From Opitutaceae bacterium (GTDB taxonomy: Bacteria; Verrucomicrobiota; Verrucomicrobiia; Opitutales; Opitutaceae), in NCBI GenBank assembly GCA_036502225.1, contig DASXYY010000029.1, forward strand, positions 14,151-78,150: 64,000 nucleotides of DNA. The letters are read 5' to 3'. This document shows positions 3,903-63,015 of the stretch, piece by piece. The stretch's first letter is position 1. Each line of letters starts with the position of its first letter. Below the pieces are notes generated by a model. That model had not been told where the DNA came from. It worked only from the letters and a program-made list of their open reading frames with translations, and made no database searches. The translations under genes and the position numbers were made by a program.

Positions 3903-6514
3903 GCCTCCTCGAACGTTTTTGGCGCGAGCCGGTGCTCCGCACGGTGCTGCCGAATGGGCTGACCGTCATCATCAAAAGGGACGCGTCGGCGGCGCTGGCC
4001 TCCGTGCAAGTCTGGGTCAAGACCGGCAGCATTCACGAGGGCGACCAACTTGGCGCCGGGTTGTCACATTACCTGGAGCATATGCTGTTCAAGGGAACCG
4101 AACGGCGAGCTGGCCGGGAAATCTCTGCGACAGTGCAAGCTCATGGCGGTTACATCAACGCGTACACCACCTTTGACCGCACGGTCTATTATATCGATTT
4201 GCCGAGCGAACACACGGCGATGGCGGTCGATTTGCTGGCGGACGCGGTGCTGAGTTCCACCCTGCCGGAGGGCGAAGTGGCGAAGGAAAAGGAAGTGATC
4301 ATGCGCGAAATCGCCATGACGCGCGACGATCCCGACGATCGCCTGTGGCAGGCGATGTTCGCCACGGCGTTTCGCGAGCATCCGTATCGCTTTCCCGTCA
4401 TCGGCCATCGCGAATTGTTTGCCGGCAACGAGCGGGGTGAGCTCGAGGGTTACTACCGCTCGCGCTATGTGCCGAACAATCTGGTGGTGGTGATCGTGGG
4501 GGGGATCGATCCGGATGAGACTCTCAAGGTGGTCGAGGAGAAATTTGGCGGACGTTCGCGCGGGCGCCTTCGTCCCGTGCTGGTGACCGAAGAACCCCTG
4601 CAGCTGGGGCCGCGTGAATTGCATGTGACGGAGGACGTCGAAATCGTCCGCGCGGCCATCGCGTGGCAGGTGCCGGGCCTCACGCATGCGGATGCGCCGG
4701 TGCTCGATCTGCTGGCGATGGTGCTCGGGCACGGCGACAGCTCGATCCTGTGGCAGGAGCTGCGGGAAAAAGCCAAAGTGGTGCACACGATCGATGCGTC
4801 GTGCTGGAACCCGGGCACGAGCGGGCTGTTCTGCGTTTCCTTCACCTCGGAGTCGGGCAACCGGGAAAAGGCGGAGGCGGTGCTGGACAAGGTCCTCAAG
4901 CGCTGCGCGGTCAAGGGATTCAAGGCGCAGGACATCAAACAGGCGGTGCGCCAATTGATCGCCAACGAAGTGGCCTCCCGGCAAACGATGAGCGGACAGG
5001 CCAGCCGGCTCGGCGCGGCCGAAGTGGTCGCGGGGGATCTGCATTTCAGCCAGCAGTACTTCGAGCGGCTCGAACGCGTGACCGCGGCGCAGCTCAAGCA
5101 GGCGCTGAAGAAGTACCTGGTGCGGCAGACGCGGACGGCCGTGTCGTCGAATCCGATGGAGGCCAAAGCGGCCATCGCCACGGCGCCAAAGGCGACGGGC
5201 AAGGCCTCTCGAAAAAAAGCGGAATCCGTCGGGGAATTCGAACTGGTCACTTTGAAGAACGGCGCCCGCCTGCTGCTGCAGCAGGAAAAACGCCTTCCTC
5301 AAGTCCACCTTCGCATGGTCTGGCAGGGCGGCCCGGGTTTTGAAGATCCCGCGAAACGGGGCACTTCCGGGCTGGTCTCCACGCTGCTGAGCAAGGACAC
5401 GAAGCGGCGGTCGGCGGCCGAGGTGGCGCGTTACATCGAGTCGGTGGGCGGCTCCTTTTATCCTTTCAGCGGCAACAACAGCCTGGGTCTCGCGGTGGAA
5501 GTTCTGCCACCGGATTGGCTGCGGGCAGTCAGTGTGCTGAGTGACGCCGCGCTCGCGCCGGCTTTCCGGGCCGACACGTTCGCGGTGGAAAAGGAAGCGC
5601 AGCTTGCCGGTTTGCGCCAGGATCTGGACGACGTGGTCACCGAGGGGAGGAAGCTGCTGCGGAGGAAATTCTTCGGCGATCATCCCATGGGCATCGACGC
5701 AAACGGGACGGTGGAAGGCGTGGAGAAGCTGGCCGCCGGCGACATCGCGGCCCAGTACGGACGCCTGAATTTCGGATCGAACGTGGTGATTGCGGTCGCC
5801 GGGGATTTTGAGCCCAAGGCGGTGAAGCCGAAGCTGACGGCGCTTTTGGAGAAGGTGACAGTTGGCGCTGTAGCCGGGGGCGGGGACCCCGGCAAGAGCG
5901 CCATCAAACGCGGAAAAGCGCGTGGGGACCACGCGCTCCACCTTCGGCGACTGGGCCAACCCGGCGACTTCGTGGAAATTCGCGACAAGGAGCAGGCCGT
6001 CGTCCTGCGCGGCTACCCCGGCCCGGCGCTTCACACTCCCGACTACTACGTCAGCGAAGTCGCCGATGAACTGTTCAGCGGCATGGCCTCGCAACTGTTC
6101 GAGCGGGTGCGCGAAGAGAAGAGCCTGGCGTACTTTGTCCGCTCCTCCCGGGTCACCAGTTTGGATACGGCCATGTTCTCGTTCCTCGCCGGAACCAAGC
6201 CGGGGCGCGAAGACGAGGTGCTCGCCGAAATCGATATCGAGATCGAACGCGTCCAGACCGGGAAGGTCGAGGAAGCGGAGCTGCGCCGCTGCCAGGCCCG
6301 GCTCAAGGCGGGCCGCCGTCAAAGCCTTCAGACTAACGCGGCGCGGGCGCTGCACGCTTCGCTGAATGCGCTGCAGGGGCTGCCGATTGACGATTGGAAG
6401 AACTACGACGCGCGCATCGAGGCGGTGACGATCGCGGACTTGGCCGCGTTCGCGATGAAGTACCTCGTTCGCGCGCAAGCGACGCAGCTGGTGGTGCGCC
6501 CCAAGCCAGCCTGA
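3899..6514 (+). CDS. M16-family zinc peptidase, two tandem insulinase-like units fused (871 aa)
   Basis: HxxEH zinc motif in GLSHYLEHMLFKGT near the N-terminus. A second M16-like unit starts near EFELVTLKNGARLL. TTG start at 3899. Carries an in-frame repeat at 5870-5942. Confidence 0.85.
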   Translation: MSLLERFWREPVLRTVLPNGLTVIIKRDASAALASVQVWVKTGSIHEGDQLGAGLSHYLEHMLFKGTERRAGREISATVQAHGGYINAYTTFDRTVYYIDLPSEHTAMAVDLLADAVLSSTLPEGEVAKEKEVIMREIAMTRDDPDDRLWQAMFATAFREHPYRFPVIGHRELFAGNERGELEGYYRSRYVPNNLVVVIVGGIDPDETLKVVEEKFGGRSRGRLRPVLVTEEPLQLGPRELHVTEDVEIVRAAIAWQVPGLTHADAPVLDLLAMVLGHGDSSILWQELREKAKVVHTIDASCWNPGTSGLFCVSFTSESGNREKAEAVLDKVLKRCAVKGFKAQDIKQAVRQLIANEVASRQTMSGQASRLGAAEVVAGDLHFSQQYFERLERVTAAQLKQALKKYLVRQTRTAVSSNPMEAKAAIATAPKATGKASRKKAESVGEFELVTLKNGARLLLQQEKRLPQVHLRMVWQGGPGFEDPAKRGTSGLVSTLLSKDTKRRSAAEVARYIESVGGSFYPFSGNNSLGLAVEVLPPDWLRAVSVLSDAALAPAFRADTFAVEKEAQLAGLRQDLDDVVTEGRKLLRRKFFGDHPMGIDANGTVEGVEKLAAGDIAAQYGRLNFGSNVVIAVAGDFEPKAVKPKLTALLEKVTVGAVAGGGDPGKSAIKRGKARGDHALHLRRLGQPGDFVEIRDKEQAVVLRGYPGPALHTPDYYVSEVADELFSGMASQLFERVREEKSLAYFVRSSRVTSLDTAMFSFLAGTKPGREDEVLAEIDIEIERVQTGKVEEAELRRCQARLKAGRRQSLQTNAARALHASLNALQGLPIDDWKNYDARIEAVTIADLAAFAMKYLVRAQATQLVVRPKPA
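5870..5942. repeat. mixed REP doublet (type B unit + type A unit) inside the M16 CDS
   Basis: GTAGCCGGGGGCGGGGACCCCGGC...ATCAAACGCGGAAAAGCGCGTGGGGACCACGCGCTCCACC, translated in the host frame as [25 protein letters not shown]. Confidence 0.85.
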
Positions 6515-6556
6515 CCGCCTCGGCGCATGGCGTGCGGCGCAGGAGCGAAATTGGCG

Positions 6557-6634
6557 GGTGGAGCGCATGGTCCCCATGCGCTTAAACCTCCGCCCGCATT
6601 TGGCGGCGAAGCGAGTGGGGGCTGCGCGCTTCAC
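6557..6634. repeat. type A REP doublet (long-spacer form), right arm degenerate
   Basis: GGTGGAGCGCATGGTCCCCATGCGCTTAAACCTCCGCCCGCATTTGGCGGCGAAGCGAGTGGGGGCTGCGCGCTTCAC. Confidence 0.8.
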
Positions 6635-6641
6635 TTTGCTT

Positions 6642-6712
6642 TAGCCGGGGGCGGTGACCCCGGCCGTTCCGCTTTTGACGTCGAACAGCGCGTGGGGACC
6701 ACGCGCTCCACC
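6642..6712. repeat. mixed REP doublet (type B-like unit + type A unit)
   Basis: TAGCCGGGGGCGGTGACCCCGGCC...TTTTGACGTCGAACAGCGCGTGGGGACCACGCGCTCCACC. It ends 2 nt before the GTG start of the DUF1573 gene. Confidence 0.8.
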
Positions 6713-6714
6713 TC

Positions 6715-7395
6715 GTGACGGGCCCCCGGCGGCAGCGAAACGCCGCCCGACTTTGGTTCGGGTTGATCATGGCGTGGGTTTGTGTGGGCGCCCGCGCTTC
6801 CACCCTCGACTGGCCGTCGACCGTCAGGGAAGTCCACGCTCTCGCCGGTGGTCCGGGCCCGGTGATCGAGTTTCCTTTCGTGAATGGCGGCGACAAGCCC
6901 GTCCATCTTGTCCGCGCGACAGTCAGCTGCAGCTGCGTAGCGGTGGAGTTGCCTGCGTCGCCAATTGCCCCCGGCCAGCGTTCCCGCGTCATCTTGCGCG
7001 TCCAATCGGTGCGCAACGTCGGCCAGCGTCACCTGGGCGCCGCGCTCTACCTCGACGGTGAACCGCAGCCCGTGATGCTTTCCGCGATCGTTGATGTGGA
7101 CCAAGGGGTGCGCTTCGAGCCGGCCTCGCTTTATTGGCCAGTGGACGGGTCGCCCGCCGCCACGCAGGTAGCCGAATTGGTCGCAGCGGAAGGAAAGAAG
7201 ATCGACTCCGTCGAAGCGGCGCCGAATGCCGCGTATTCAGTTCGGATGATTCGTTCGACTGATGATTCTTCCGTGCGTTTGGAAATCAGGCCGGCCGCTG
7301 CGCGGCCGCCCGCCGCATCGTCCGTGAAGGTCAAAGTCCAGCTGCGCGGCGGGAGCCGGGTCGAGGCGGAGCTTTGGTTGATTGTGAAATCGTAG
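6715..7395 (+). CDS. DUF1573 domain-containing secreted protein
   Basis: IEFPFVNGGDKPVHLVRATVSCSCVAVE matches the DUF1573 pattern (F.F.N.G..P..I......SC.C). A GTG start at 6715 gives a proper signal peptide (RRQRNAARLWFGLIMAWVCVGARA-S). An alternative ATG lies at 6769. Confidence 0.7.
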   Translation: MTGPRRQRNAARLWFGLIMAWVCVGARASTLDWPSTVREVHALAGGPGPVIEFPFVNGGDKPVHLVRATVSCSCVAVELPASPIAPGQRSRVILRVQSVRNVGQRHLGAALYLDGEPQPVMLSAIVDVDQGVRFEPASLYWPVDGSPAATQVAELVAAEGKKIDSVEAAPNAAYSVRMIRSTDDSSVRLEIRPAAARPPAASSVKVKVQLRGGSRVEAELWLIVKS

Positions 7396-9904: not shown

Positions 9905-9987
9905 GGTGGAGGGGTATTGCACGGACTCTTGCGAATCGCCGCAAGCGCGGAGCCGGATTCCCAATTGAGTCCCAGCGGCCGCCGGGC

Positions 9988-10100
9988 TGTAGATCCGGGG
10001 GCTTATCCCGAGGTGGAGCGCGTTGTCCCTAACGCGCTGTTCGATGTCGAAAGCGGAAAAGCGCGTGGGGACCACGCGCTCCACCTCGCGATAGCGGGTC
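9988..10100. repeat. nested REP element: type B-like outer arms around a 73-bp type A doublet
   Basis: GTAGATCCGGGGGCTTATCCCGAG-GTGGAGCGCGTTGTCCCTAACGCGC-TGTTCGATGTCGAAAGCGGAAAA-GCGCGTGGGGACCACGCGCTCCAC-CTCGCGATAGCGGGTC. Lies between gmhB and the fpg-like gene. Confidence 0.85.
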
Positions 10101-10112
10101 AACGGCAGTTCG

Positions 10113-15785: not shown

Positions 15786-15858
15786 GGTGGAGCGCGTGGT
15801 CCCCACGCGCTTGTCCGCTTTCGACGTCAAACAGCGCGTGGGGACCACGCGCTCCACC
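15786..15858. repeat. type A REP doublet (73-bp form, spacer inverted relative to 7396)
   Basis: GGTGGAGCGCGTGGTCCCCACGCGC-TTGTCCGCTTTCGACGTCAAACA-GCGCGTGGGGACCACGCGCTCCACC. Starts immediately after the purH stop. Confidence 0.9.
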
Positions 15859-20642: not shown

Positions 20643-20721
20643 GGTGGAGCGCATGGTCCCCATGCGCTTCTCCGCCAAATGCGGGCCGACGTTTAAGCGC
20701 GTGGGGACCACGCGCTCCACC
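20643..20721. repeat. type A REP doublet (long-spacer form)
   Basis: GGTGGAGCGCATGGTCCCCATGCGC-TTCTCCGCCAAATGCGGGCCGACGTTTAA-GCGCGTGGGGACCACGCGCTCCACC. Occupies 79 of the 99 nt between mpa and dop. Confidence 0.9.
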
Positions 20722-24236: not shown

Positions 24237-24315
24237 GGTGGAGCGCGTGGTCCCCACGCGCTTTGACCTCGATCCGCGTTTGGCGCCGAAGCGCATGGGG
24301 ACCATGCGCTCCACC
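24237..24315. repeat. type A REP doublet (long-spacer form)
   Basis: GGTGGAGCGCGTGGTCCCCACGCGC-TTTGACCTCGATCCGCGTTTGGCGCCGAA-GCGCATGGGGACCATGCGCTCCACC. Lies between the TPR-membrane gene and the UBact-like gene. Confidence 0.9.
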
Positions 24316-28798: not shown

Positions 28799-28877
28799 GG
28801 TGGAGCGCATGGTCCCCATGCGCTTTGACGTTCGCCCGCGTTTGACGCCGAAGCGCGTGGGGACCACGCGCTCCACC
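28799..28877. repeat. type A REP doublet (long-spacer form)
   Basis: GGTGGAGCGCATGGTCCCCATGCGC-TTTGACGTTCGCCCGCGTTTGACGCCGAA-GCGCGTGGGGACCACGCGCTCCACC. Lies between the convergent anti-sigma and ruvA genes. Confidence 0.9.
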
Positions 28878-44638: not shown

Positions 44639-44725
44639 GGGTGGAGCGCGTGGTCCCCACGCGCTTAAACCTCCGCCCGCGTTTTGTATCAATCGCCGAA
44701 GCGCGTTGGGACCACGCGCACCACC
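44639..44725. repeat. type A REP doublet (long-spacer form)
   Basis: GGTGGAGCGCGTGGTCCCCACGCGC-TTAAACCTCCGCCCGCGTTTTGTATCAATCGCCGAA-GCGCGTTGGGACCACGCGCACCACC. Lies between convergent stops at 44625 and 44727. Confidence 0.9.
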
Positions 44726-44726
44726 T

Positions 44727-46376
44727 TTAAAAGGTCGCGATCGATTCCAGACGTTTGCGATACAGAGCGCCGATCCTCGCCGGCGAAAATCTCTCTTCGA
44801 TTGTCGTTCGGGCGGCGGCCCCCAGCCGCGCGCGCAGGGCCGGTTCCAGCGCCAGCCGGCACATCTGCTGGGCGGCATGGCGGATGTCCGGCTCCGCCCA
44901 CACATTGCCCCGGGCGTACGGACCGTGGTTGCGCTCGAGCGTGACTTCCGCGCAACGGACCGGGCAGCCGTTCTCGGCATTCACGTATTCCGCCGTGGCC
45001 GACCAGTCGGTGGTCACCACCGGCAAGCCCAGGTACATGCACTCGGCGACGACCAGGCCAAAGCCTTCCGACCGGTGCAGCGAAACGAGCGCGTTGCAGG
45101 CCGCCTGAAGTTCGTAGGTTTGAGCCCGCGTGATCGTCTCGGTCAGCAGCCGGATGCCCGGCTGGGCGGCCGCGGCGGCCTTGAGGCGCTCCCAGTCGGC
45201 CGAATTCATCCCGGCATTGTGAACTTTGACCACGAGCGTCGCGCCCTGCGCCGCCAGGCCCGATTCCGCGAACGCCGCCAGCGCGCCTTCCGGGTTCTTG
45301 CGGGCCGAGTAGGAGTTCAGGTCAAACAGGCTGAGAAAGTAAAAGCCCTCGGCCGGCAGGCCGAATTTGGCGCGCAGCACTTCCCGCGATTCGGCCGGCC
45401 GATCGAAGGCGACGGCATGGGGCAGCGTGAGGACCGGCCACGGGGATTTGGCCGCGACCGCCCGCCGGGTGAAGTCACTGGGGCACCACACCTCGTCGAA
45501 ATAGTCCAGGCTCTCGACCCAGGCGTCGGGAAACTCCGGCAGCTCCCACGCAAAATAGGCGACGTTGTATTTGCCGTTCCGGAAATTCGGCCCGTGGTGG
45601 TGATCGATGTCGCGGGCCGCCGGCGGGTCGACGTGAAAGACATTCACCCCCAGGGGATTTTCCTCGCGCCAGCGTTCCGCGTAGGTCCGGTCTCCCTTCG
45701 GGTTCAGGCAATTGAGCTTCAGGGGAACGAGGGAGCACGGCAGCCCGGCGGCGTCCGCGGCGCGCACCATGCAGCGGGCGGATTCGCCCAGCCCCAGGTC
45801 GGCGGCCAGGTGGCCCACGACATTCAGCCCCAGGTGCGCGTGCCGCCGGACAAAGGAGCGGCTCAGGGGGCTGTGCCGCTGGCTGAAATCGTAGATGAAT
45901 TCGCCGGCCGTCGTCGTCAGCGATTGGATACGAATCTGCCGGTTGCGGTTTTGCTTCCGGTAGCGCGCCAGCGCCGGCAGCGCGCTGACGCGCGCCACCC
46001 AGGCGAGCGCGTTGGTGTGGGCGACGCCTTCCAGAGTCAGGGTAAGGATGGGGTGTTCCGTCCGCGCCGCGGCCGAGAGGGGAAGGCGCACTTCCCAGGC
46101 GCCCGGTTCGGAAGCCGCCACGCCGCCGACCGGAACCCCGTTGATCGCGATGCTCAGTCCCGGGAAGCCGGCTTCGACGCCGCGAACCTCGGGATGAATG
46201 ATGCATTCGCCGCGGAGCACGAGGGCGTCGATGCCGTCGAGCGGCGGCAGCCGCAGCCGGGCCGCTTCGCGAATCCAGGCCGAGTTCTGGGCGAACTCGT
46301 CGTAGAACAGGCCGCTATAATCCGTGAAGCGGCGGTGAAAGGAGCCTCCGGAGGGGGCCGCGCGGTTCAGGGGCAT
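44727..46376 (-). CDS. GT4-family glycosyltransferase with ~190-aa N-terminal extra domain
   Basis: ATG at 46376 (MPLNRAAPSG). C-region VSLHRSEGFGLVVAECMYLGLPVVTTDWSATAEYV (EX7E). Confidence 0.7.
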   Translation of the reverse strand: MPLNRAAPSGGSFHRRFTDYSGLFYDEFAQNSAWIREAARLRLPPLDGIDALVLRGECIIHPEVRGVEAGFPGLSIAINGVPVGGVAASEPGAWEVRLPLSAAARTEHPILTLTLEGVAHTNALAWVARVSALPALARYRKQNRNRQIRIQSLTTTAGEFIYDFSQRHSPLSRSFVRRHAHLGLNVVGHLAADLGLGESARCMVRAADAAGLPCSLVPLKLNCLNPKGDRTYAERWREENPLGVNVFHVDPPAARDIDHHHGPNFRNGKYNVAYFAWELPEFPDAWVESLDYFDEVWCPSDFTRRAVAAKSPWPVLTLPHAVAFDRPAESREVLRAKFGLPAEGFYFLSLFDLNSYSARKNPEGALAAFAESGLAAQGATLVVKVHNAGMNSADWERLKAAAAAQPGIRLLTETITRAQTYELQAACNALVSLHRSEGFGLVVAECMYLGLPVVTTDWSATAEYVNAENGCPVRCAEVTLERNHGPYARGNVWAEPDIRHAAQQMCRLALEPALRARLGAAARTTIEERFSPARIGALYRKRLESIATF

Positions 46377-47362
46377 GGGGCGGATGCGGCAGCGTGTTCC
46401 AACGAGCGCCAGCGTGCAAATTCGATTGCGAGGGCCGCGCGCGCCCCCTCGGCGGCGCGGGCGGGCGGGCGGCGGCGCAGGCCGTAGCGACACAGGGCGG
46501 CCTGACCGGCCAGCCGGCGGTCGGGGTAGTCGCGGGGTTCAGGCAGGTAGCGCTCGAAGTAGGCTTGGGTCCAGGCCATTTCCGCCAATCGGGACAGCCG
46601 TTCGGCCCAGCTCCGGGCCAGGCGGTGCGCGTTGGCTTCATTCCGCGCGTTGCGATTGGGGCTGGCGCTGACGTGGTGATCGACGGCGCTGCGCAGGGCG
46701 ACGGCGTTGGTGCGGCCCAGTTCAGCGGCCCGGAAACAAAGGTCCACGTCTTCGCAGCCATTGAAATAACCTTCGTCGAACCCCCCGAGCGTGCGCCACA
46801 ATTCGGCCGAGATCAGCAGGCACGCGCCGGTGACCGCCGGAACCAAGGAGAAACCGCGCAGGCGTTCGGTGACGGGCGCCCGTTTCCGATGCTCCGGCTT
46901 GGCTTTGGCGTTGATTACGATGCCGGTGTGGTCGATCGCGCCGTCGCTGACGCGGTATTGCACGTTGCCGATGGCGCCGGCTTGGCCGCGCCGGGCGAGC
47001 CCGCCGTGCAGGGCAAGCATGGGTTCAAGCCAGCCGGGGCGAAGGACCAGGTCGTTGTTGAGGAGGACGAACAGATCGCCTTTGGCTGAAGCGGCGGCCC
47101 GGTTGTTGGATTTGGCGTAGCCCGAGTTTTGCGAGTTAAGCAGAACTTGCAGCCGGGAGCCTATCCCGAGGTGGAGCGCGTGGTCCCCACGCGCTCCACC
47201 CTTCAGCCATTCCCTGGTTCCGTCGGTGCTCCCATCGTCGACCAGGATGATCTCATGCGCCAAACCCGCGGGCATCGTCGCCTGCAGACTGGCCAGCATT
47301 GCCTGCGAGTACGGCAGGCAGTTGTAAAGCGGAACAATGAAACTGACCGCCGGGGCGCCCAA
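46367..47362 (-). CDS. GT2-family glycosyltransferase carrying an in-frame repeat insert
   Basis: VSFIVPLYNCLPY, ILVDDGSTDGT, VLLNNDLVL (DXD-type). TTG start directly after the rmlA stop. Insert at 47149-47210 is read as [19 protein letters not shown]. Confidence 0.75.
   Translation of the reverse strand: MGAPAVSFIVPLYNCLPYSQAMLASLQATMPAGLAHEIILVDDGSTDGTREWLKGGARGDHALHLGIGSRLQVLLNSQNSGYAKSNNRAAASAKGDLFVLLNNDLVLRPGWLEPMLALHGGLARRGQAGAIGNVQYRVSDGAIDHTGIVINAKAKPEHRKRAPVTERLRGFSLVPAVTGACLLISAELWRTLGGFDEGYFNGCEDVDLCFRAAELGRTNAVALRSAVDHHVSASPNRNARNEANAHRLARSWAERLSRLAEMAWTQAYFERYLPEPRDYPDRRLAGQAALCRYGLRRRPPARAAEGARAALAIEFARWRSLEHAAASAPCP
47149..47210. repeat. partial nested REP element (B-like arm + minimal type A hairpin) within a CDS
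   Basis: GCAGCCGGGAGCCTATCCCGAG-GTGGAGCGCGTGGTCCCCACGCGCTCCAC-CCTTCAGCC. The right outer arm is decayed. Confidence 0.8.
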
Positions 47363-52649: not shown

Positions 52650-54785
52650 TCAAACCGCCGCTAAAGGCAGCGCGAAAAATGCCGCCGCGCCAAGAAGTAA
52701 TGCGAGGTCGATTTTGGACAGATGATCCCACGAAAAACCGGACGCACCGATCATGCCCGCCCAATGGGCCGCCAGGGTTTCGAGCAAGACAATTGCAAGC
52801 GCCAGGCGGGACGCCGGCCGGCTGAGAGGCCAGCGCGTCGCGGTCCACAGCACGATGCCGATCGTAATCGGTTCCAGACAGTTTCGGCCGAGGCCGTCGG
52901 TGCTGTAGCCCCAAAAAACCACGGCAAGCGCAAGCCCGGCGAGGATGAACCACCGGCCGAATTCCCGACCGTTTCGATCCGGGGAGTGGGAACGCTTGAA
53001 CGCAGCCAGGAGCGGGATCCACGCGCCGGCAAAGCCCAGCTGGGAGGGAAGCGTCTTCGAATATTGCATCGACCAGATGAGCCAATCGTTCAGTTGACGG
53101 GTGCGCCAGACATGGGCCGCCTTATCCGCCAGCCAGGCTCCCGGCACGACCGTGTCGAGCAGGCTTTTACCGCGGGAAAGCGCCCAGCTTCCCGCCGAAA
53201 CCGCCGGTAGCGCGCCGCGCCCATCGCCGATGAAGTAGGAGAGGAATGGGTCGGGTTCGTGCGCGTGGTGCTTTAACCACAGCCAAGGAAGGCAGGCCGC
53301 GGCTGCCGTTGCCGCGGAGCGCAGGGTCCATCCCAGACCATTGAGGCGCAGAAAAAAGACCAGCAGCGGCACCGCGAACAATGCGCCGAGCGGATGGGCG
53401 TAGTAGGCCGCGGCGAGCCACAGGCCCGTCCAAATAAAGTGGAAGCGGCGGCCCGACTCGGGAATCGCAGCGGCCGCTGCCAGCAACAGGAATGAGGTCG
53501 CCAGCAGCTTCGGCCATACGAACGTCGTATTGATCCACGTCACCGGCGCGAACGTCAGCCAGACCAGCGCCCATCGCGCTTTCTTCGGTTCCACGCCCAG
53601 ACTGAGGAGCAGCTCCGCGGCGGCCAAAATGAGGCCCGCATTGGTGAAGATGCCGATGAACCGGGCGATAAAGAAACTTTCTTCGGCCGCGGGCCAGGGA
53701 CCCAGGGAGGCATCGCCGCCCGATTGGACCTGAGGCGGGGCGAGACCGAATTCCCCCAGAATGGCCAGCGGAATCAAAGGTCCTCGCGAAGTGGCCGACC
53801 ACCCGTGCCAGAAGAAACGTTCCGAGACCGCGGGCGTCCGCACCGGCAGCGTCAAATACGCCGCCGTTTTGTAGGGAATGGCGCTGTCCGGCGGCGAAGC
53901 CGCGAGCCGGGCTTGGAGCGGCGACTGCCTCCAGAAATCCTCGCCCAAAGGCGTGCGCACGGCCGAATCGAGGATCGCGGCGCCCGCGAGCGCGATGAAG
54001 CACAACCAGGCCGTTCGCTCCACTTCACCATTGCAAGCAAGCGGCGAGACGCCGCTTCCACGGAACACCACCGATATCACCAATAGACTCTCGATCACGA
54101 CCAGCCCCTTCCCAGCCAGCGAACCGTGGGCGGGCCCCCATAGGCAAGCCACGACTCCCGCCGCCATCATCAGTCCAAGTCCCGGCAAGGGAACGTAGGC
54201 GGCTTTCCGAATCCCGAATGCCCAGCCGGGAACGAGCAACAGCGCGGCGACGGAAAAAGCGCAGGCGAAATAATAGACGTAATCGGTTTGCAGATACGCC
54301 GGAACCGGATGCGGCGGCAACGCATCCACCGATCTCGACGACCGGATGGGAGAACCGCACCACACCGAGCCCGGCGACGCCTGGATCTGCGCGCGGAGGC
54401 CCCGCCAGCCGCGGACGTCGATCTTCCAAAAGTTGAGCCCCGGGTAGGCGTCGGGGCGGCGGCGCAGGGTCGCGACCGGGAATCCGGAAGTGTCGATCAC
54501 GTCAAGTTTGAGTTCCGCGTCCTGGCCTTGGAAGGGGACGTAAAGAAACGAACCGGTCAGCGCGAACCGGCGGGACTCCCGCTGCGGCCGCTGAATGGCA
54601 TAGGTGACGTCCCCGAGCGGAACGCCGTCGAAATCCTTCCCGGAAAGCACGTCCGCCCGCCATTCCGAATCCGCTCCCGAATTCGGCCGAAACCACCAGG
54701 GCAGGTTCAGGATCAGCAGGACGACCATCGCCGCGATCCGCGAATTGGATTGAAAACCGGCGCCTCGACTCACTGTGATGCGCAA
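52650..54785 (-). CDS. large polytopic membrane protein (up to 711 aa) with N-terminal extracytoplasmic domain
   Basis: About 14 hydrophobic segments after a ~170-aa soluble region. Start uncertain: TTG 54785, GTG 54773 or ATG 54728. Confidence 0.55.
54039..54061. repeat. solo type C REP unit within a CDS
   Basis: Minus-strand GTGGAAGCGGCGTCTCGCCGCTT differs at one loop base from the arms at 43647-43706. Confidence 0.7.
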
Positions 54786-54788
54786 CTC

Positions 54789-55550
54789 TTGACCCGCCTT
54801 TCTCCACTTTCAAGGCCGACCCGGCTTTCCGTGATCGTGCCGGTCTACAACGAACGTCCCACCGTGACGGAGGCGTTGCAGGCGCTGCTGGCCAAGGAAA
54901 TCTCCGGCGTCGAAATCGAAATTGTCATCGTCGAGAGCAACTCCACCGACGGCACCCGCGAAATCGTCCAGGGTTTGGCCGCGCATCCCCGGGTGGTCCT
55001 GGTCCTCGAGGACCGGCCCCAGGGCAAAGGGCACGCGGTGCGCGAAGCCTTCAAGCACATCACTGGAAATGTCGTCCTGATTCAAGACGCCGACCTGGAA
55101 TACGATTTGGCCGACTATGAGCCGCTGCTGGCGCCGATTATCGCCGGCCGGCAGACCTTCGTGCTGGGATCTCGCCATGGCGAAGGCGGCTGGGTCATCC
55201 GCAAATTCGACGACCAGCCGTTCCGGGGCTTCATCCTCAATCTGGCCCATTGGACGTTCACCCTGATGCTCAATGTGGCGCTCGGCACCTGGCTGCGCGA
55301 CCCGTTCACGATGTACAAGGTCTTCCGCCGCGAATGCCTCGACGGACTGACCTTCGAGTGCAACCGCTTCGATTTCGACTGGGAGCTCCTGATCAAGCTG
55401 GTCCGCCGGGGCCATCGCCCGATCGAAATCCCAGTTGCCTACCGCTCGCGCTCCTTCAGCGAGGGAAAGAAGGTCCGCATGTTCGCGGACCCGATCACTT
55501 GGATCTGGGCGCTCGCGAAATACCGGTATTGCAATTTGCGACCGAAGTGA
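54789..55550 (+). CDS. GT2-family glycosyltransferase
   Basis: LSVIVPVYNERPTV, VIVESNSTDGT, LIQDADLEYD. There is no ATG, so TTG 54789 is proposed; the track ORF from 54288 is antisense to the neighbouring gene. Confidence 0.7.
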   Translation: MTRLSPLSRPTRLSVIVPVYNERPTVTEALQALLAKEISGVEIEIVIVESNSTDGTREIVQGLAAHPRVVLVLEDRPQGKGHAVREAFKHITGNVVLIQDADLEYDLADYEPLLAPIIAGRQTFVLGSRHGEGGWVIRKFDDQPFRGFILNLAHWTFTLMLNVALGTWLRDPFTMYKVFRRECLDGLTFECNRFDFDWELLIKLVRRGHRPIEIPVAYRSRSFSEGKKVRMFADPITWIWALAKYRYCNLRPK

Positions 55551-57522
55551 TTGTTCGGGGCAGGTCTTCGGAACTGCTCCAAGCTTCCGCCATCAGTGCG
55601 ACCAAGAAGATGAGTCCGGCGGCCAGCGTAATCGTGCCCGCCCAGCGCGTGGCCCTCCACGCGGCGTGGGACCACCGGCCCATTTCGACAGGGTCGGCGA
55701 ACGCGAACCACGCGTTGGGACGATCGACGCGGGCTTCGACGACAAAGGGCCCGGAGGGCGCGCGGACGAACGCGTTGTGCCAGCCCTCTCCCGGGACGTG
55801 ATCGGGTTTGACCGTGGCCAGGACCCGGCCGGTCGTCGGATCACTCAGTGTCAGGGAAAGTCCGGTGCGGCCCAGATCGCCGGCCACGAGAAATTGGAGC
55901 CAGCCGCGAACGGGGGACGATACGGGCTGACTGCGCCAGACCGCCGGTTCGGCGCCGTAGGAACCATGGAAGCGGGCTTCGTCCAAGGGCGCGGTGTTCG
56001 GAGAAAGTCCGTCATTCTCCTTGGGATACGGAGGCTGGTTCTGAGGACCGCGGGTATCGGCATCGGCGAAGCCGGTGGTCGCGGCGGTGGTCAGAGCAAG
56101 CGGCAGCCGCACCGAGGCCGGCAGCAGGCGGCGGATGGGCGGCATCCGCAGGACCTCGGCCAGCGAGGCCGCGTCCGGGTAGGGGATCTCGGGATGCCGC
56201 AAAAAGGCCTCATCGCCGGAGGCGAGAAAAAACCGGGTGTTGGATTCAGCGTAGCCGTAGAATCGCGGAAGATCCTTCAGTTGCCCGGGCACCACGTCAC
56301 GCAACTGGTAGCAGAGGCCGATCACGAGAAGCAACGTCCAGGCCCCGGCCAGAAGCAGCCACAGCCGTCGCTTTCCGACTGTGCCGTGGTCGCCGGCAGG
56401 ATCGCTGTAGCCGGGGGCGTTGACACCGGCACCTGCGGTGTCGAAAGCGGGACTGCCGGGGTCACCGCCCCCGGCTACAGAATGCAGCCCGCCGTCGACG
56501 AGGACCGCCAGGCAGAGCGCATTGGTGATGAGGCCCAGGAAGAAGGTGTCGATGTAGCGGGGCGCTGGCGGCGGCGCGCTCCCGCCTCGCGCATAAGCCA
56601 TCGCGGCAACCTGCATCAGAACCCACAAGCCAAGCACAAATAGCAGCAGGTTGAATTGCGTCGCGGGACGCCGGCGGAGAATCCGAACCGCAACCACGGC
56701 CCACGGGACCCAAAACAGCAGCGCGGTGTAACCCCATCCGGCTTCGAAAACGGGCCAGCCCAACCCCCGCATCGCCGCCCACCAGAAGGTGGCGAACGAA
56801 TGAGCCTGCAGGAAATAGTGTCCCGCGACGACGACCCGGATATGCACACCGAGGGCGAATAGGGCGGCGCACAACAGGACCGTCACTGCGGCGACCCACG
56901 AAATCGAGCGTTCGCGCCAGGCTTGAACGAGGACGACGGCGGCGCACGCGAACGCCGCCATGGGGCCGCTGCCCATCGCAACGAGCGACAGGGCCGCCGC
57001 CGCCAATCCCAGCCACCATGTTGCCTGTTTGGGCCGGCGGAAGGGAAGCCAGCACAGCGCCCCGAGCGCGAATAGGATCAGGTACCATTGCTGCGAATGA
57101 AACCCGTGGATGGCGTTTTCCCATGAGAATAATCCGGAGAATGCCATCGCTAGCAGGAGGCCGTTGACCGCAGTGCTTCGGCGCGAAAGATTCCGGCTGG
57201 CCAGGAGCAGAAAACAGACCGCGATCGCCGCGGGAATGCATGCGTTGACGACGGCCTCCAGCCGTTGATCCCACTGGCGATTCGCGATGGTCAGCCCGAG
57301 CGCGACCAATCGGGTCGGAACAATGCGGTGCTCGTTGTGCGCGTGAAAGAGATTGGAAAGGCTGTGATCGCCGGAGTACCACGGCTCCAGGATTTGCCGG
57401 GCTTCCGCATCCCATTGATCGAGCTCCGGGAGCGACCTGCCGAACCGATCGACAAGCGCCCAACGGAACCCCATGACGAAGAGAAACAAGGCCACGGCGG
57501 CCAACGTCAGAGAACGCCTCAT
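55495..57522 (-). CDS. polytopic membrane protein, candidate GT-C glycosyltransferase (paralogue of 57519-58913), with a 24-codon palindromic insert
   Basis: ATG at 57522. TM1 then the acidic loop PELDQWDAE. About 11 TM segments, then a ~200-aa C-terminal soluble domain. Insert at 56407-56478. Confidence 0.6.
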   Translation of the reverse strand: MRRSLTLAAVALFLFVMGFRWALVDRFGRSLPELDQWDAEARQILEPWYSGDHSLSNLFHAHNEHRIVPTRLVALGLTIANRQWDQRLEAVVNACIPAAIAVCFLLLASRNLSRRSTAVNGLLLAMAFSGLFSWENAIHGFHSQQWYLILFALGALCWLPFRRPKQATWWLGLAAAALSLVAMGSGPMAAFACAAVVLVQAWRERSISWVAAVTVLLCAALFALGVHIRVVVAGHYFLQAHSFATFWWAAMRGLGWPVFEAGWGYTALLFWVPWAVVAVRILRRRPATQFNLLLFVLGLWVLMQVAAMAYARGGSAPPPAPRYIDTFFLGLITNALCLAVLVDGGLHSVAGGGDPGSPAFDTAGAGVNAPGYSDPAGDHGTVGKRRLWLLLAGAWTLLLVIGLCYQLRDVVPGQLKDLPRFYGYAESNTRFFLASGDEAFLRHPEIPYPDAASLAEVLRMPPIRRLLPASVRLPLALTTAATTGFADADTRGPQNQPPYPKENDGLSPNTAPLDEARFHGSYGAEPAVWRSQPVSSPVRGWLQFLVAGDLGRTGLSLTLSDPTTGRVLATVKPDHVPGEGWHNAFVRAPSGPFVVEARVDRPNAWFAFADPVEMGRWSHAAWRATRWAGTITLAAGLIFLVALMAEAWSSSEDLPRTITSVANCNTGISRAPRSK
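56407..56478. repeat. type B REP doublet (72 bp) within a CDS
   Basis: GTAGCCGGGGGCGTTGACACCGGC-ACCTGCGGTGTCGAAAGCGGGACT-GCCGGGGTCACCGCCCCCGGCTAC. Confidence 0.9.
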
Positions 57523-58959: not shown

Positions 58960-59038
58960 GGTGGAGCGCATGGTCCCCATGCGCTTCGGCGCCAAACGCG
59001 GATGGACGTTAAAGCGCAGAGGGACCATGCGCTCCACC
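58960..59038. repeat. type A REP doublet (long-spacer form)
   Basis: GGTGGAGCGCATGGTCCCCATGCGC-TTCGGCGCCAAACGCGGATGGACGTTAAA-GCGCAGAGGGACCATGCGCTCCACC. Confidence 0.9.
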
Positions 59039-59040
59039 CG

Positions 59041-62000
59041 CTATAGCGGCGGCACTCGCGGGGGATAGGCCAGGGCGAAGTCTTCGGAGTCCAGCGAGAG
59101 ATTGGGATTGTAGGCGGGATCGTTGAGCAGCCGCGCGCCCCAGCGCGCCTGGATCGCCTCGATTTCGGATTGGAAGCGGGCGACCTTTTCGGGCGTATCC
59201 TCGGGACCGCGGCTGGCGGATTCGTGATGCACCAGTTCGGCCAGGGGGGTGTAGACGTTGCGCAGGCCGAGGCCCTCGACGCGCAGGCAGAAATCCACGT
59301 CGTTGAAGGCGACTGGCAGCCCCTTTTCTTCGAGGCCACCGACCGCCAGAAACGTGTCCTTGCGAATCACCAAGCAGGCGGCGGTGACCGCGGAAAGGTT
59401 TTGCGTCAGGTGGGGACGGAATTGGGGCGTTCCCGGATCGTTCTTCTCAAACAGCTTGAAGGGATGCCCCGCCACGCCGCCCAAACCGGTGATCACGCCG
59501 GCGTGCTGCACCCGCAAATCCGGATAGAGCAGGCGCGCCCCCACGGCGCCGATTCCCGGGCGCATGGCGTGCCCCACCATCTCGTCGAGCCACCGCGGGT
59601 CAAGCGCCTCGATGTCGTTGTTGAGCAGGCACAGCACTTCGCCGCGGGCTTCCTTGGCCGCGAAATTATTGATGGCGGAGTAATTGAACGGCGCGTCGTA
59701 GCGCACGAAACGCACATCGTCTTCCCGCTGCAGCGCCGCGAAGATCGCGAGGGACTCGGACTCGCCGGAACGGTTGTCCACCAGGATCACTTCGTACGGC
59801 GCGTACCGGGTCCGGGCGAAAATCGAGGCGATGCAAAGGCGGACCAGCTTGCCGGCATTGTGCGTCGGAATGATGATGGAGACCAAGGGATGGGGCCGGT
59901 CCTCCGCAAGACGGTAGGTCGCGTGCCAATGTCCGCCCACGGTCGGCGTCAATTCGACCTTTTGACCGGTCCGCTCAAAATGCTCGGCCAAGGCGCGGCG
60001 GGCCGACTCGGCGACGTAGCCCTTGGTCGAAAGCTGCAGGGCCGTCGATCCTTCGCCGGCGCGCCAATGGTAAAGGATCCGCGGCAAGTGCCGAATTTGA
60101 CTGGGCGCCAGCCGTTCGGTTGCCCGCAGCGCCAAATCCCAGTCCTGGCTGCCTTCGAATCCTTCGCGCATGCCGCCCAGCCCGCGGACGACGTCCGCCC
60201 GGTAGACCGTGAGATGGCAGAGATAGTTCTGGCTGCAAAGCAGGTCGGGATTCCAATCCGGTTTGAAGTGCGGATCGAACCGGGTCCCCTGTTCGTCGAT
60301 TTTGTCCTCGTCCGTGTAGATGAGCGCCGCGTCGGGATGGGCGACGACTTCCTGGGCGATGCAGTGCAGCGCGTGCGGCGCGAGCGTGTCGTCGTGATCG
60401 AAAAGAGCGACCCAGTCGCCGGTGGCGAGCGCCAGCGCGGTGTTGGTGGCGGCCGAGATGTGTCCGTTGCGGGGACGCCGGGTCACTTTGATCCGGCGGT
60501 CCAGGGCGGAATATTCATCGAGCACCTGGCCGACATGGGGCAGTGTCGACGCGTCGTCGGCGATGCAGATTTCCCAGTCGGAATAGGTTTGGGCGAGCAC
60601 CGAATCCAGGGCCGCCCGGAGCCAACGCTCATCAGGATTGAAGACCGGAATGAGGATGGAAAACCGCAAAGGAGGGAGCGCTGCTGCTTGCCGGCGAAGC
60701 CGGTCCAATACGGCCGGCGACGGTTCCGGGTGGGCCTTCAGCCAATGGGCGTACGTTCCGTGGGAATCGGGGTCCCCGGCGTGCAGGTCCCGGTGAAAGA
60801 AGGGATGCCAAACGCCGTCCGTGTCCTGGGCCTCGAGGTCGACCGCCGGGTCGCCCGATTCGAGCATCGCATCGATCTTGAAGCCCGCCGTGGCGCTGTA
60901 CGGCCAGGCCGGGAACACGAGCAGCAGATCCGGTCGCTCGCCGCCATAGGCGCCGCCATAGACGCGAGCGCCGATCCGCGCTCGGATCGCTCCAAATTGG
61001 GTGAGCGATTGCGAAAAACACCAGCCACGGATCGTGACGGGTCCGGAGAGTCCGTTCCAATATCGCGGCGCGTCCAGGTGGCTGGTGATCGGCAGTGTCG
61101 AGTTGGCGGCCGGACCCGGCGCCGCGGCTTCGGGTTTGGGTTTAAATCGGTCGATCAGCAGCCGCCGAAGGGCGCGCAGGGGCGCGGTGATCCGCCAGGA
61201 AAAACTTGCCGCCATTCGGCCCAGGCGTCCGCGCAGAGCGAAGATTTCCCCTTCGGCATCCGTGCGATACCGGCTGGCCGTTTCGGTCTGCGTTGCGATT
61301 TCCCTCCGCGCCTGGCGCAAGGCTTGATTCGCGTCGGCAGCTTGCTCGCGGGTCCGGGCCGAAACCTCCTCGAGCAAGACGACGTGGGCGCGGCGCATCC
61401 GATCGATTATGCGGAACCGATTGGCTTCAATTTTCGCTTCGGCGGCGCGCGCTTCGGCGGCGACGCGCGCGGAGTCGGCGGCGTGGCGTTCGTTTTCGAG
61501 GCGCTCGACGGCGGCCCGGGCCGGCACCAGTTCTGATTCCAACCGGGCGACCCGGTCGTCGCGCAGAGCGCCGGCGATATGCGGCCACAGGCGCCGCCAA
61601 CCCGGTTCCGAAGCCAGGAGTGGATCGATGACCGCCGTCGCGCTGGCGAATTCCGCTTCGTGGCCGGAGCGGCTGGTGGCGCCGACGCGGTAATCGAAGA
61701 GCACGGCCGGCACAGTCTCCATCGTGCGCCCGGCCCGCAGCCAATCGATCAGCAGTCGCCAATCCTCATTGACCAAGCCCGGCTTGAAGCCTCCCAGCTC
61801 AAGGAACGCATCCCGTCGGAAAAGGGTGTTGGTGTCGCCGAGGACATTTTCGACCAGCGCCAGTTCGTGGCAGGGGCCGAGCGGGGCAAAGATGTGGGAG
61901 GGGGCGTCGCGAAAGACCTCGAAAGCGCACGTGACGCAATCGGCGCCCGACGACGACATGGCGCGGGCGAGCGTCGCGATCATTTCCGGGCGGAAGCGAT

Positions 62001-63015
62001 TGTCGCCGTCGCAAAAGAGCACCGCGTCGCCGGTGGCTTCGCGCGCGGCGCGATTGCGCGCCGCCGACGGACCGGCGTTTTCCTGCCGGATGAATTTCCA
62101 ACCGAGGGGCCAATAGCGGTCGTTGGCCTTTTTCCACGCGAGCTCGGCGGTGGGACTCGTCGAGCCGTCGTCGATCACGATGACCTCGTGCGGGCGCAGG
62201 GTTTGGACAGAGAGAGTGTCGAGGGCTTCCTTGAGGTACTCGGCCTTCTCGTAGTAGGTGACGCAGACGCTGATTTTTATTGGTAGGTCGCGGCTGCCGC
62301 TGGACCTGTAGCCGGGGGCGTTGACCCCGGCCCCTTTGACATCAAAAGCGGGATTGCCGGGGTCAACGCCCCCGGCTACATCGACTGCCAACGGCGGGAC
62401 GCTTTTCCCGGGGCTTCCCTCCACTGCCAGCCACGGGCGAATGGGCGCTTTCGTCCAGGCTGATTCCTGGAGCCATTCGACCAGCTCGTTGCGAGCGGCG
62501 TAAATTTCATCCGCCGCTCCGATCGCCCGGCGCTCCAGAAATTCCGTCGCGATTCCGCTGCGGCCTTCGTCGGGAAACCGCCCCGCCCGCGTCCGCTCGA
62601 ACTCCGCCACGGTGGTCACGAAGAGGCGCAGGGCCGGGGGGGCCTTGAGCTTGCGGCCGGCCAGGGTCAGCCAGCCGCAGCGGCGGGCGCCTCCGATGGA
62701 TGCGGCGTGGGCCGGATGGCCGGCGAACCAAATCTCGTCGGCTTGGATGACGGCGCCGACATGCGCCAGGCGCAGGCCGACCGCATGGGCGTCGGCGGCG
62801 GGAAAGATCGGAACCGAAAAGGCCGGGGGCTCCTCGTCGAGATGCTGGTACTCGAGTCCGGCGGCCTCCGCCTTTTGCCGGAGCGAGCGGCTCAGCACCG
62901 CGCCAATGCGCTGGGAATGCAGCAGGATGACCCGGTCCGTCCGCCGTGCCACGGCAGCCAAATCCCAGGCGAACCCATCGCCGGGGTTAAGCTCGTGCGC
63001 GACAATGCAAATCAT
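59041..63015 (-). CDS. 1324-aa multidomain glycosyltransferase (N-terminal GT-B-like half, three GT2 domains, coiled coil)
   Basis: GT2 signatures ISVCVTYYEKAEY...VIVIDDGSTSP, FSILIPVFNPDERW...ICIADDASTLP and VSIIIPTHNAGKL...VILVDNRSGES. Coiled coil ARLESELVPARAAVERLENERHAADSARVAAEARAAEAKIE. Insert at 62308-62379. Confidence 0.8.
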   Translation of the reverse strand: MICIVAHELNPGDGFAWDLAAVARRTDRVILLHSQRIGAVLSRSLRQKAEAAGLEYQHLDEEPPAFSVPIFPAADAHAVGLRLAHVGAVIQADEIWFAGHPAHAASIGGARRCGWLTLAGRKLKAPPALRLFVTTVAEFERTRAGRFPDEGRSGIATEFLERRAIGAADEIYAARNELVEWLQESAWTKAPIRPWLAVEGSPGKSVPPLAVDVAGGVDPGNPAFDVKGAGVNAPGYRSSGSRDLPIKISVCVTYYEKAEYLKEALDTLSVQTLRPHEVIVIDDGSTSPTAELAWKKANDRYWPLGWKFIRQENAGPSAARNRAAREATGDAVLFCDGDNRFRPEMIATLARAMSSSGADCVTCAFEVFRDAPSHIFAPLGPCHELALVENVLGDTNTLFRRDAFLELGGFKPGLVNEDWRLLIDWLRAGRTMETVPAVLFDYRVGATSRSGHEAEFASATAVIDPLLASEPGWRRLWPHIAGALRDDRVARLESELVPARAAVERLENERHAADSARVAAEARAAEAKIEANRFRIIDRMRRAHVVLLEEVSARTREQAADANQALRQARREIATQTETASRYRTDAEGEIFALRGRLGRMAASFSWRITAPLRALRRLLIDRFKPKPEAAAPGPAANSTLPITSHLDAPRYWNGLSGPVTIRGWCFSQSLTQFGAIRARIGARVYGGAYGGERPDLLLVFPAWPYSATAGFKIDAMLESGDPAVDLEAQDTDGVWHPFFHRDLHAGDPDSHGTYAHWLKAHPEPSPAVLDRLRRQAAALPPLRFSILIPVFNPDERWLRAALDSVLAQTYSDWEICIADDASTLPHVGQVLDEYSALDRRIKVTRRPRNGHISAATNTALALATGDWVALFDHDDTLAPHALHCIAQEVVAHPDAALIYTDEDKIDEQGTRFDPHFKPDWNPDLLCSQNYLCHLTVYRADVVRGLGGMREGFEGSQDWDLALRATERLAPSQIRHLPRILYHWRAGEGSTALQLSTKGYVAESARRALAEHFERTGQKVELTPTVGGHWHATYRLAEDRPHPLVSIIIPTHNAGKLVRLCIASIFARTRYAPYEVILVDNRSGESESLAIFAALQREDDVRFVRYDAPFNYSAINNFAAKEARGEVLCLLNNDIEALDPRWLDEMVGHAMRPGIGAVGARLLYPDLRVQHAGVITGLGGVAGHPFKLFEKNDPGTPQFRPHLTQNLSAVTAACLVIRKDTFLAVGGLEEKGLPVAFNDVDFCLRVEGLGLRNVYTPLAELVHHESASRGPEDTPEKVARFQSEIEAIQARWGARLLNDPAYNPNLSLDSEDFALAYPPRVPPL
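62308..62379. repeat. type B REP doublet (72 bp) within a CDS
   Basis: GTAGCCGGGGGCGTTGACCCCGGC-CCCTTTGACATCAAAAGCGGGATT-GCCGGGGTCAACGCCCCCGGCTAC. Confidence 0.9.

Follow-up and report, generated by a model that had tools for sequence, protein, structure and literature searches.

The stretch of DNA analysed here, called the window in what follows, covers 64 kb from an uncultured Opitutaceae bacterium (Verrucomicrobiota); its GC content is 64.4%, and its sequence is also part of the 98-kb Joint Genome Institute (JGI) metagenome contig 3300036780, Ga0376652_0000361. Short hairpins of the repetitive extragenic palindromic (REP) type are dispersed through it, and eight of these elements lie inside protein-coding genes, in the reading frame of the host. 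The window was lengthened to 77 kb of contig by means of the contigs L009 and L001.

REP-type hairpins

Three hairpin units are present, A GGTGGAGCGCGTGGTCCCCACGCGCT, B GTAGCCGGGGGCGTTGACCCCGGC and C GTGGAAGCGGCGTCCCGCCGCTT, and the B unit with its CT prefix reads (CT)GTAGCCGGGGGCGnnGACCCCGGC; each unit is a GC-rich imperfect palindrome of 23-26 nt with stems of 7-9 bp. A Hamming scan of the window with the three consensus units, allowing up to 6 mismatches, returned 52 unit matches against 0-4 in 20 shuffles, and the large repeat families of the window were also recovered by a repeat search. When merged, the unit matches correspond to 19 element loci in 64 kb and to 23 loci in 77 kb, the four loci added by the extension being all intergenic or at gene ends.

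Regarding the heads of the units, GTAG is found in 13 of the 14 type B units, the remaining one having TTAG, and types A and C have a GTGG head. The dinucleotide CT precedes 13 of the 14 B units (CTGTAGCC...), which all lie within 5868-62381 of the window; the conserved B element is CTGTAG...CTACAG and measures 76 nt, not 72. Most units are paired as inverted dimers (A/A, B/B and C/C); A/B hybrids occur too, along with a nested form that has the A palindrome inside and B ends outside. The spacers of these dimers are about 24 nt long with a conserved core, and this palindromic core, CCGCTTTCGACGTCGAA, is common to all dimer types. Taken together, the CT prefix and the common spacer core suggest, at the level of sequence, a single modular family of elements in which the hairpin ends are interchangeable.

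Folded as RNA, the dimers reach energies of -37 to -77 kcal/mol, far below those of shuffled controls (z down to -13.8), and they form perfect mRNA stems of 24-34 bp. None of the eight intragenic copies has in its 3' flank the T-run of an intrinsic terminator, and Rfam has no family matching the repeats.

As for traces of mobility, the copies have no flanking direct repeats apart from the conserved CT/AG, and the contig holds no partner insertion sequence (IS). Target-site duplications and clean insertion boundaries were sought in DNA alignments with sister species, in which the divergence was too high to define them. The REP-associated tyrosine transposase (RAYT) was searched by tblastn with four such proteins against the 77-kb contig stretch, and nothing better than E=0.2 was obtained. 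Elsewhere in the metagenome collection, the scan gave a single other match to the A unit: a 1.1-kb contig (L008) of an unrelated metagenome (Ga0182022), which begins with an exact A unit at positions 1-30.

Copies inside eight genes

Eight of the 23 loci are internal to genes, at variance with the extragenic location that gives REP its 'E'. The first-pass annotation had placed these copies inside open reading frames (ORFs) and in their frame, and this was borne out for all eight: each is present, and the protein sequence on either side of it has homologues and is read in one frame. The host genes, several of which encode glycosyltransferases (GTs), and the copies they contain are the following (aa, amino acids).

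3899..6514, plus strand: pitrilysin/M16 peptidase, 871 aa; Pfam M16/M16_C twice, 120 orthologues
5870..5942, in the M16 gene: B/A hetero-dimer, 73 nt, encoding VAGGGDPGKSAIKRGKARGDHALH, aa 657-681
22263..24224, plus strand: PMT_2 (GT-C-like) and TPR protein, 653 aa; PMT_2 at aa 74-224, TPR from aa 486 (Pfam)
23359..23451, in the PMT_2-TPR gene: A/B hetero-dimer with a duplicated B tail, 93 nt, encoding 31 aa
36437..37573, plus strand: GT4 glycosyltransferase; Glyco_transf_4 at aa 99-175, Glycos_transf_1 at aa 204-356 (Pfam)
36974..37045, in the GT4 gene: nested element, near-perfect 72-nt palindrome, encoding VAGGLSRGGARGPHALHLGIAPGY, aa 179-203
42889..44625, plus strand: polytopic membrane protein, 578 aa; no Pfam match, 830 homologues
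43647..43706, in the gene of the polytopic protein: C/C dimer, 60 nt, encoding WKRRPAALGTEEKRRDAAS, aa 253-272
46367..47362, minus strand: GT2 glycosyltransferase, 331 aa; PF00535 at aa 7-148, in agreement with the JGI gene call
47149..47210, in the GT2 gene and read on the minus strand: truncated nested B/A element, 62 nt, aa 50-71
52650..54785, minus strand: 711-aa polytopic protein; orthologues of 692 and 710 aa in L006, L007
54039..54061, in the gene of the 711-aa protein: single type C unit, 22/23 match to the consensus, encoding RGSGVSPLA
55495..57522, minus strand: 675-aa polytopic protein, its C-terminal part a beta-sandwich; weak fold match to ArnT/Pmt
56407..56478, in the gene of the 675-aa protein: B/B dimer encoding VAGGGDPGSPAFDTAGAGVNAPGY, aa 349-372
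59041..63015, minus strand: 1324-aa protein with an N-terminal domain and three GT2 domains (Pfam; JGI call)
62308..62379, in the gene of the 1324-aa protein: B/B dimer, consensus copy, encoding VAGGVDPGNPAFDVKGAGVNAPGY, aa 213-236

The positions reported earlier for the copies stand, and the descriptions of three of them were amended, the M16 copy being of 73 nt, the GT2 copy of 62 nt, and that at 54039 a single half-unit. All eight hosts are intact full-length ORFs with a normal periodicity of GC content at third codon positions (GC3). The M16 host is 100% identical to the NCBI entry 'MAG TPA: pitrilysin family protein [Opitutaceae bacterium]'; the proteins closest to it come from Opitutaceae/Opitutus metagenome-assembled genomes (MAGs). 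For the TPR and GT4 hosts, the gene status is based on Pfam domains on both sides, PDB alignment and hydropathy. The GT4 copy folds as an RNA hairpin of -77 kcal/mol, and the true start of this gene is probably the ATG at 36512, downstream of another REP at 36444-36489. The full-length homologues of the 578-aa polytopic protein cover aa 40-576 of the query, hence both sides of the repeat. At the GT2 locus, a plus-strand ORF at 47129-48277 was considered as the host and rejected as Arg-rich antisense noise, the GT2 gene being on the minus strand.

Regarding the 711-, 675- and 1324-aa proteins, the JGI gene caller gives identical ORFs, and syntenic orthologues in the sister-species contigs L005, L006 and L007 span the sites. 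The model of the 675-aa protein has a weak Foldseek match to ArnT/Pmt (E ~0.009, TM ~0.3), and the protein is tentatively viewed as GT-C-like on this predicted fold. The 1324-aa ORF was also considered as two genes fused via the repeat; this was rejected and the ORF kept as one gene, since each sister orthologue is itself one ORF of 1296 aa and the fusion is also seen in the distant homologues P0123, P0130 and P0134. An example of a predicted repeat-host junction peptide is KRRPAALGTEEK.

With respect to the reading frames, translation reproduced two earlier statements, namely that B/B dimers are open in one frame per strand and that the A/A dimer at 15786 is open in five of the six; the C/C dimer is open in six of six. 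Two further statements held in part. The intragenic B copies do occupy their sole open frame and the translations given for them are correct, but this is not evidence of design, as selection leaves precisely that arrangement. Likewise, copies of 60, 72, 72, 72 and 93 nt comprise whole codons, but this depends on the boundary drawn, because the conserved B element is the longer CTGTAG...CTACAG, and it does not extend to the M16 copy. An open frame and a length divisible by three both amount to survivorship, because a copy inside an intact gene must have both. Lengths divisible by three were found in 5 of 6 intragenic dimers versus 2 of 14 intergenic ones (p=0.007 by Fisher's test, or p=0.04 if the TPR copy is taken as 71 nt); the intergenic dimers measure 73, 79 or 86 nt, and no A/A dimer of 73 or 79 nt occurs inside a gene among the loci of the 77-kb contig. 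This excess shows that selection for an open frame has acted.

Comparison with orthologues confirmed, for five hosts (M16, GT2, 675-aa, 1324-aa and 578-aa polytopic proteins), the expectation that proteins from other genomes are devoid of the repeat residues. The clean gaps of 20-31 aa that had been anticipated were not encountered at any site, the net differences being +15 aa for M16, +9 for GT2, +10-11 for the polytopic protein, +28 for the 1324-aa and +33 for the 675-aa protein. In M16, the linker is 15 aa shorter in the sister orthologues (76% identical, 856 aa), and 17 further aligned orthologues also have no repeat-coded residues, with a loop length that differs among them. The 24 repeat-coded residues of the 675-aa protein occur in none of 13 orthologues (34-60% identical); the net addition lies in a short inter-helix loop, and the sister-species orthologues are single ORFs of 625/636 aa. 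The segment of the 1324-aa protein is absent from the 1296-aa sister orthologues, which are 71% identical. As for GT2, the sister protein (66% identical) is only 9 aa shorter, the truncated element partly replacing ancestral sequence; homologues of the polytopic protein (~40% identical) are 10-11 aa shorter at the repeat. By these alignments, the repeat-coded residues are read as lineage-specific additions. In the sister loci L003-L007 and L012 (~71 kb), neither A nor B units were found, only a few C-like ones.

The proposal that structure prediction would place the repeats in surface loops was also supported: they fall in loops between transmembrane (TM) segments, in domain linkers or in variable loops, with AlphaFold2 (AF2) confidence (pLDDT) below 50. 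Two hosts were modelled, M16 (pLDDT 77) and the 675-aa protein (pLDDT 84.8, pTM 0.86). In the M16 model, a coil at aa 660-683 with pLDDT <50 coincides with the repeat; in the 675-aa model, the sole internal segment below 50 is aa 348-377, between the long helices 321-342 and 379-416. In GT4, aa 179-203 fill the space between the Pfam matches for the two Rossmann domains; aligned with MshA by phmmer, the repeat corresponds to the inter-domain linker and is of nearly equal length. In the 578-aa polytopic protein it lies between the hydrophobic segments 229-249 and 270-292, and in the PMT_2-TPR protein directly after a hydrophobic segment; in GT2 it aligns with the alpha2 region of GT-A folds, and in the 1324-aa protein it is part of the linker that joins the N-domain to the first GT2.

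Three intragenic copies were reproduced exactly in two other assemblies. L010 (Logan SRR11833492) matches positions 1-5936 of the window at 100% identity, its end falling within the M16 repeat, while L002 (JGI 3300036818) is 100% identical to window 53753-58144, including the copies at 54039 and 56407. A third contig, L011 (JGI 3300037258), matches window 41847-47057 except at 13 positions, all at 43668-43693 inside the C/C dimer (L011 1801-1890), which are accounted for by a 7-nt deletion (window 43686-43692) and 6 substitutions; this variant is due either to an error of assembly or to a mutational hot spot driven by the hairpin.

Three of these loops are occupied in different lineages as well. 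Where the 711-aa protein of the window has one C unit in its loop, the sister species have a complete C/C dimer in frame (L006 3702-3760, L007 11394-11452), the proteins being only 55% identical. In the linker of the 1324-aa protein, the sister has a C-like unit (L007 3309-3332, L005 5379-5402) and the window a B/B dimer. L012 has no intact A, B or C unit in 12.8 kb; it holds only two A-unit tails, the 11-mer CGCGCTCCACC, at 2204 and 12275. These are orthologous to the window REP sites 5932 and 17461, and fall in the M16 loop (peptide GTTRST) and just past the M20 stop codon. Repeated hits on a few permissive or targeted sites are the simplest reading of such shared occupancy.

Finally, the concentration of intragenic copies in cell-surface glycan genes noted in the first-pass annotation was confirmed by count, internal copies making up 6 of 9 loci in the glycan cluster versus 2 of 14 elsewhere in the contig (p=0.02). 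It should be noted that this excess may reflect only the tight packing of the genes together with tolerant, fast-evolving proteins.

Known relatives and interpretation

In the first-pass annotation, the Rickettsia palindromic elements (RPEs) were taken as the classic exception to the extragenic location of REPs, a view that is out of date, as intragenic REPs of the GTAG and CGTC types are reported from many species (PMC3733652). In that work (Di Nocera, De Gregorio & Rocco 2013, BMC Genomics 14:522), REPs are sorted into GTAG- and CGTC-tagged superfamilies, and a section is devoted to intragenic REPs, with the highest GTAG count in Opitutus terrae and about 70 intragenic cases from this species in its Additional file 3. 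The GTAG-17 peptides in O. terrae include VAGGGDP (TPR protein, Oter_4326), VAGVADPGPGSASPA and ...DPGY/...EPGY. More than half of the intragenic inserts are dimers coding for 20-30 aa, N-terminal copies are often mis-annotated starts, and the insertions may be neutral, sited in flexible linkers or loops (PMC3733652). GTGG heads are known for O. terrae GTAG-20, the O. terrae RAYT is ote 2468, and two Xanthomonas species have different REPs at roughly one and the same recB site (PMC3733652). [quoted passage not shown] The premise of novelty fails, because in-frame intragenic REPs are already published for O. terrae, which belongs to the same bacterial family (PMC3733652).

The likeness to GTAG-17 to -20 of O. 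terrae PB90-1, also a member of the Opitutaceae, lies in several features: the elements are short GC-rich hairpins with a GTAG head or its GTGG variant, they form inverted dimers whose 15-30 encoded aa are in frame with unrelated proteins, among them TPR proteins and glycoside hydrolases, and copies occur at gene N- and C-termini with mis-called starts. For type B, the GTAG-17 peptides VAGGGDP, VAGVADPG... and ...DPGY/...EPGY match those found here (VAGGGDPG ... APGY), and VAGGGDP of Oter_4326 equals the M16 and 675-aa copies, a comparison made at the peptide level only; types A and C are matched by head motif and architecture, not by sequence. The differences concern the species and the loop and spacer sequences, the spacers of the GTAG-17 HH dimers being 1-2 bp long versus ~24 nt here. 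The elements of the window display a hairpin, a GTAG/GTGG head, dispersed copies near gene 3' ends and inverted pairing, as in the GTAG-tagged REP superfamily. What is known is therefore the existence of in-frame intragenic REPs in the Opitutaceae; what is new is the lineage, the variants in units, spacers, hybrids and nested forms, and the local density.

The genome of O. terrae is about 6 Mb in size. Eight copies per 64 kb, compared with about 70 in that genome, correspond to a local density roughly ten times higher, and well above that tabulated for O. terrae or for Rickettsia conorii; about 14% of the window genes are affected, on a rough count of ~55-58 genes.

Systems in which REP doublets form hairpins and are paired with RAYTs (REPIN/RAYT) were reportedly described by Bertels & Rainey in 2011 and by Nunvar et al. 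in 2010. The elements here resemble such systems (PMC5581495, PMC8049555) in that two inverted units, a short distance apart, form a single long hairpin, and in being dispersed, numerous, GTAG-headed and mostly located just downstream of genes. They differ in that classical REPINs are almost entirely extragenic, and in that hetero-dimers and nested elements are common here. As for RPEs (Ogata et al. 2000, Science 290:347), the accounts of them in PMC10969869 and PMC3733652 describe elements that are also palindromic, occur in-frame in many unrelated genes as well as in non-coding DNA, and code for surface or loop peptides compatible with the fold. However, RPEs are ~100-150 bp long, AT-rich and found in alphaproteobacterial intracellular parasites, whereas the elements here are of 60-93 nt and GC-rich; RPE-4 and RPE-6 are CGTC-tagged (PMC3733652). 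RPEs have no sequence relation to the elements here, which are not RPEs; the relation is one of analogy only. Intragenic MITEs and enterobacterial repetitive intergenic consensus (ERIC) sequences, in the account of Delihas 2007 given in PMC10969869, are likewise small non-autonomous repeats that form in-frame fusions with host ORFs, but MITEs have IS-derived terminal inverted repeats and target-site duplications, neither of which was identified here.

All this makes it very probable that the elements are REP/REPIN elements of the RAYT type, retained in coding DNA at any place where a loop can accept them, as passenger loop filler. The genome would have undergone a large lineage-specific expansion of GTAG/GTGG-tagged REPs, with insertions all over the chromosome. 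A copy in coding DNA would survive only if the host frame stays free of stops, if the net change in length is a multiple of three, and if the site can accommodate the 8-31 extra residues, as may a loop between TM segments, a linker between domains or a variable loop at the surface. On this view, the eight intragenic copies are survivors, translated as disordered loop filler, passengers with no function of their own. The GTAG head and the literature suggest that a RAYT gene elsewhere in the genome provides the enzyme that mobilises the elements in trans, and the insertions would be neutral. The earlier proposal of a coding-tolerant selfish element or a recruited module is therefore retained for its first half, the elements being REP-like, in-frame and non-rickettsial; nothing shows recruitment as a functional module.

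Several observations weigh against this reading. The mobilising enzyme is not in evidence, with no RAYT gene in 77 kb, and perfect mRNA stems of 24-34 bp might not be harmless to expression. Near-consensus copies sit in the same loops across lineages that are 30-45% diverged in protein sequence, and these shared sites (M16 loop, 711-aa loop and 1324-aa linker) are not predicted by simple neutral decay. The gaps relative to orthologues are not clean, so that each event needs extra indels, or loops that were already variable. Strain-level empty sites, which would fix the exact insertion boundaries, the target sites and the direction of events, were not found for any intragenic copy. Lastly, the polytopic host is frameshifted inside the repeat in L011 and split into two ORFs.

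The shared loops leave some room, albeit little, for intragenic hairpins that are not just passengers, their occupancy of the loops being due to maintenance or homogenisation, or to targeted re-insertion across lineages. In that event, the hairpins might act as cis-regulatory elements or mutational switches for cell-surface glycan genes, as hinted by the L011 frameshift.

Another explanation, considered improbable, is that of a domesticated module, in which selection would keep the hairpins or their peptides, which might pause translation, direct RNase III to the transcripts of glycan genes for processing, or provide flexible linkers. It would account for the near-consensus units in the same loops of different lineages (711-aa protein, 1324-aa linker, M16 loop) and for the fact that the only two CGCGCTCCACC 11-mers of L012 are both at sites orthologous to window REP sites; the very stable stems, the higher frequency of internal copies in the glycan cluster (p=0.02), and the repeat residues of GT4 and GT2, which substitute for native segments (linker or helix) about as long, also agree with it. 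However, the host proteins are unrelated, the elements are found in both orientations and in more than one frame, the nearest sister orthologues function without them, and the AF2 models show unstructured coil only; the sample is also small. Moreover, the unit types differ between lineages at the 'same' site, therefore repeated hits on permissive sites fit better than conservation, and neutrality was argued for the different REPs found at about the same recB site in two Xanthomonas (PMC3733652).

Gene decay, with repeat insertion inactivating the hosts (as pseudogenes or contingency-type on/off loci) and the open frames being transient, is very unlikely. The split polytopic gene of L011, a contig of same-strain level that is otherwise identical over 5.2 kb, would fit it, as would the fast turnover of glycan clusters and mRNA stems of -50 to -77 kcal/mol, which could block ribosomes or attract RNase III; but the L011 variant could be an assembly error at the hairpin, all eight ORFs are intact and full-length, with normal GC3 periodicity and conserved domains on both sides of the repeat, three copies are exact in other samples, and the excess of lengths divisible by three shows selection for the open frame. 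An artefact of assembly or annotation, with repeats mis-assembled into genes or ORFs fused across stop-free intergenic repeats, is hardly credible: repeats do break assemblies (L010 ends inside the M16 copy) and gene callers do run through open repeats (the JGI call for Fpg is falsely extended via the REP at 9990-10085), but independent assemblies from other samples agree base for base and the repeat-free sister orthologues are single ORFs of the same architecture (1296, 625/636, 692/710 and 856 aa).

With these elements, this uncultured Opitutaceae lineage joins the short list of bacteria with proteins visibly 'decorated' by REP-type selfish DNA. In practical terms, such repeats break assemblies, mislead start-codon calls and add low-complexity loops that confuse homology and structure pipelines; at the same time, they provide a natural map of insertion-tolerant sites in GT-A, GT-B, GT-C-like and M16 folds, and no new mechanism is opened.

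Copies between genes and at gene ends

Most surviving copies lie just past stop codons, and the intergenic ones begin 0-45 nt after stops. The copies of the window that are outside genes or at their ends are listed below.

6557..6712: A/A dimer then B/A dimer, intergenic cluster after the M16 stop codon
7396..7468: A/A dimer, 73 nt, intergenic
9990..10085: A/A dimer, outer ends B-like, located upstream of the true Fpg start
15786..15858: A/A dimer, 73 nt, directly 3' of the purH stop codon; site empty in L012
17312..17471: A ... A pair, 160 nt, intergenic
20643..20721: A/A dimer, 79 nt, intergenic
24237..24315: A/A dimer, 79 nt, after the stop codon of the TPR gene
28799..28877: A/A dimer, 79 nt, intergenic
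36444..36489: A unit that supplies the last ~16 codons of the GT4 gene 35235-36497, with a B-like tail and the stop codon at 36495-36497
44640..44725: A/A dimer, 86 nt, filling the gap between convergent genes
58960..59038: A/A dimer, 79 nt, just past the stop codon of the 1324-aa gene

Empty sites were found at purH/M20 and at M16/NAD kinase. The purH-M20 spacer measures 125 nt in the window, with its A/A dimer, versus 10 nt in L012. As for M16 and NAD kinase, their genes overlap in sister species, and in the window ~950 bp of REP-bracketed DNA (6515-7467) lie between the M16 stop codon and NAD kinase; this stretch contains a DUF1573 ORF (~6770-7396, plus strand) and is bracketed by the REP clusters 6557-6712 and 7396-7468. 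The two genes abut or overlap in L003, L004 and L012, and the DUF1573 stretch is therefore a REP-bracketed gene-sized indel.

The element at 36444-36497, besides closing one GT4 gene, also precedes the probable start of the next. Regarding Fpg, the public gene call (9077-10102, minus strand, 341 aa) has a 66-residue false N-terminal extension through the REP at 9990-10085, and the Pfam Fapy domain begins at aa 67 of this call. Finally, a tRNA-Lys(UUU) gene at 18837-18912 (minus strand) overlaps the start of the listed ORF 18902-20350.

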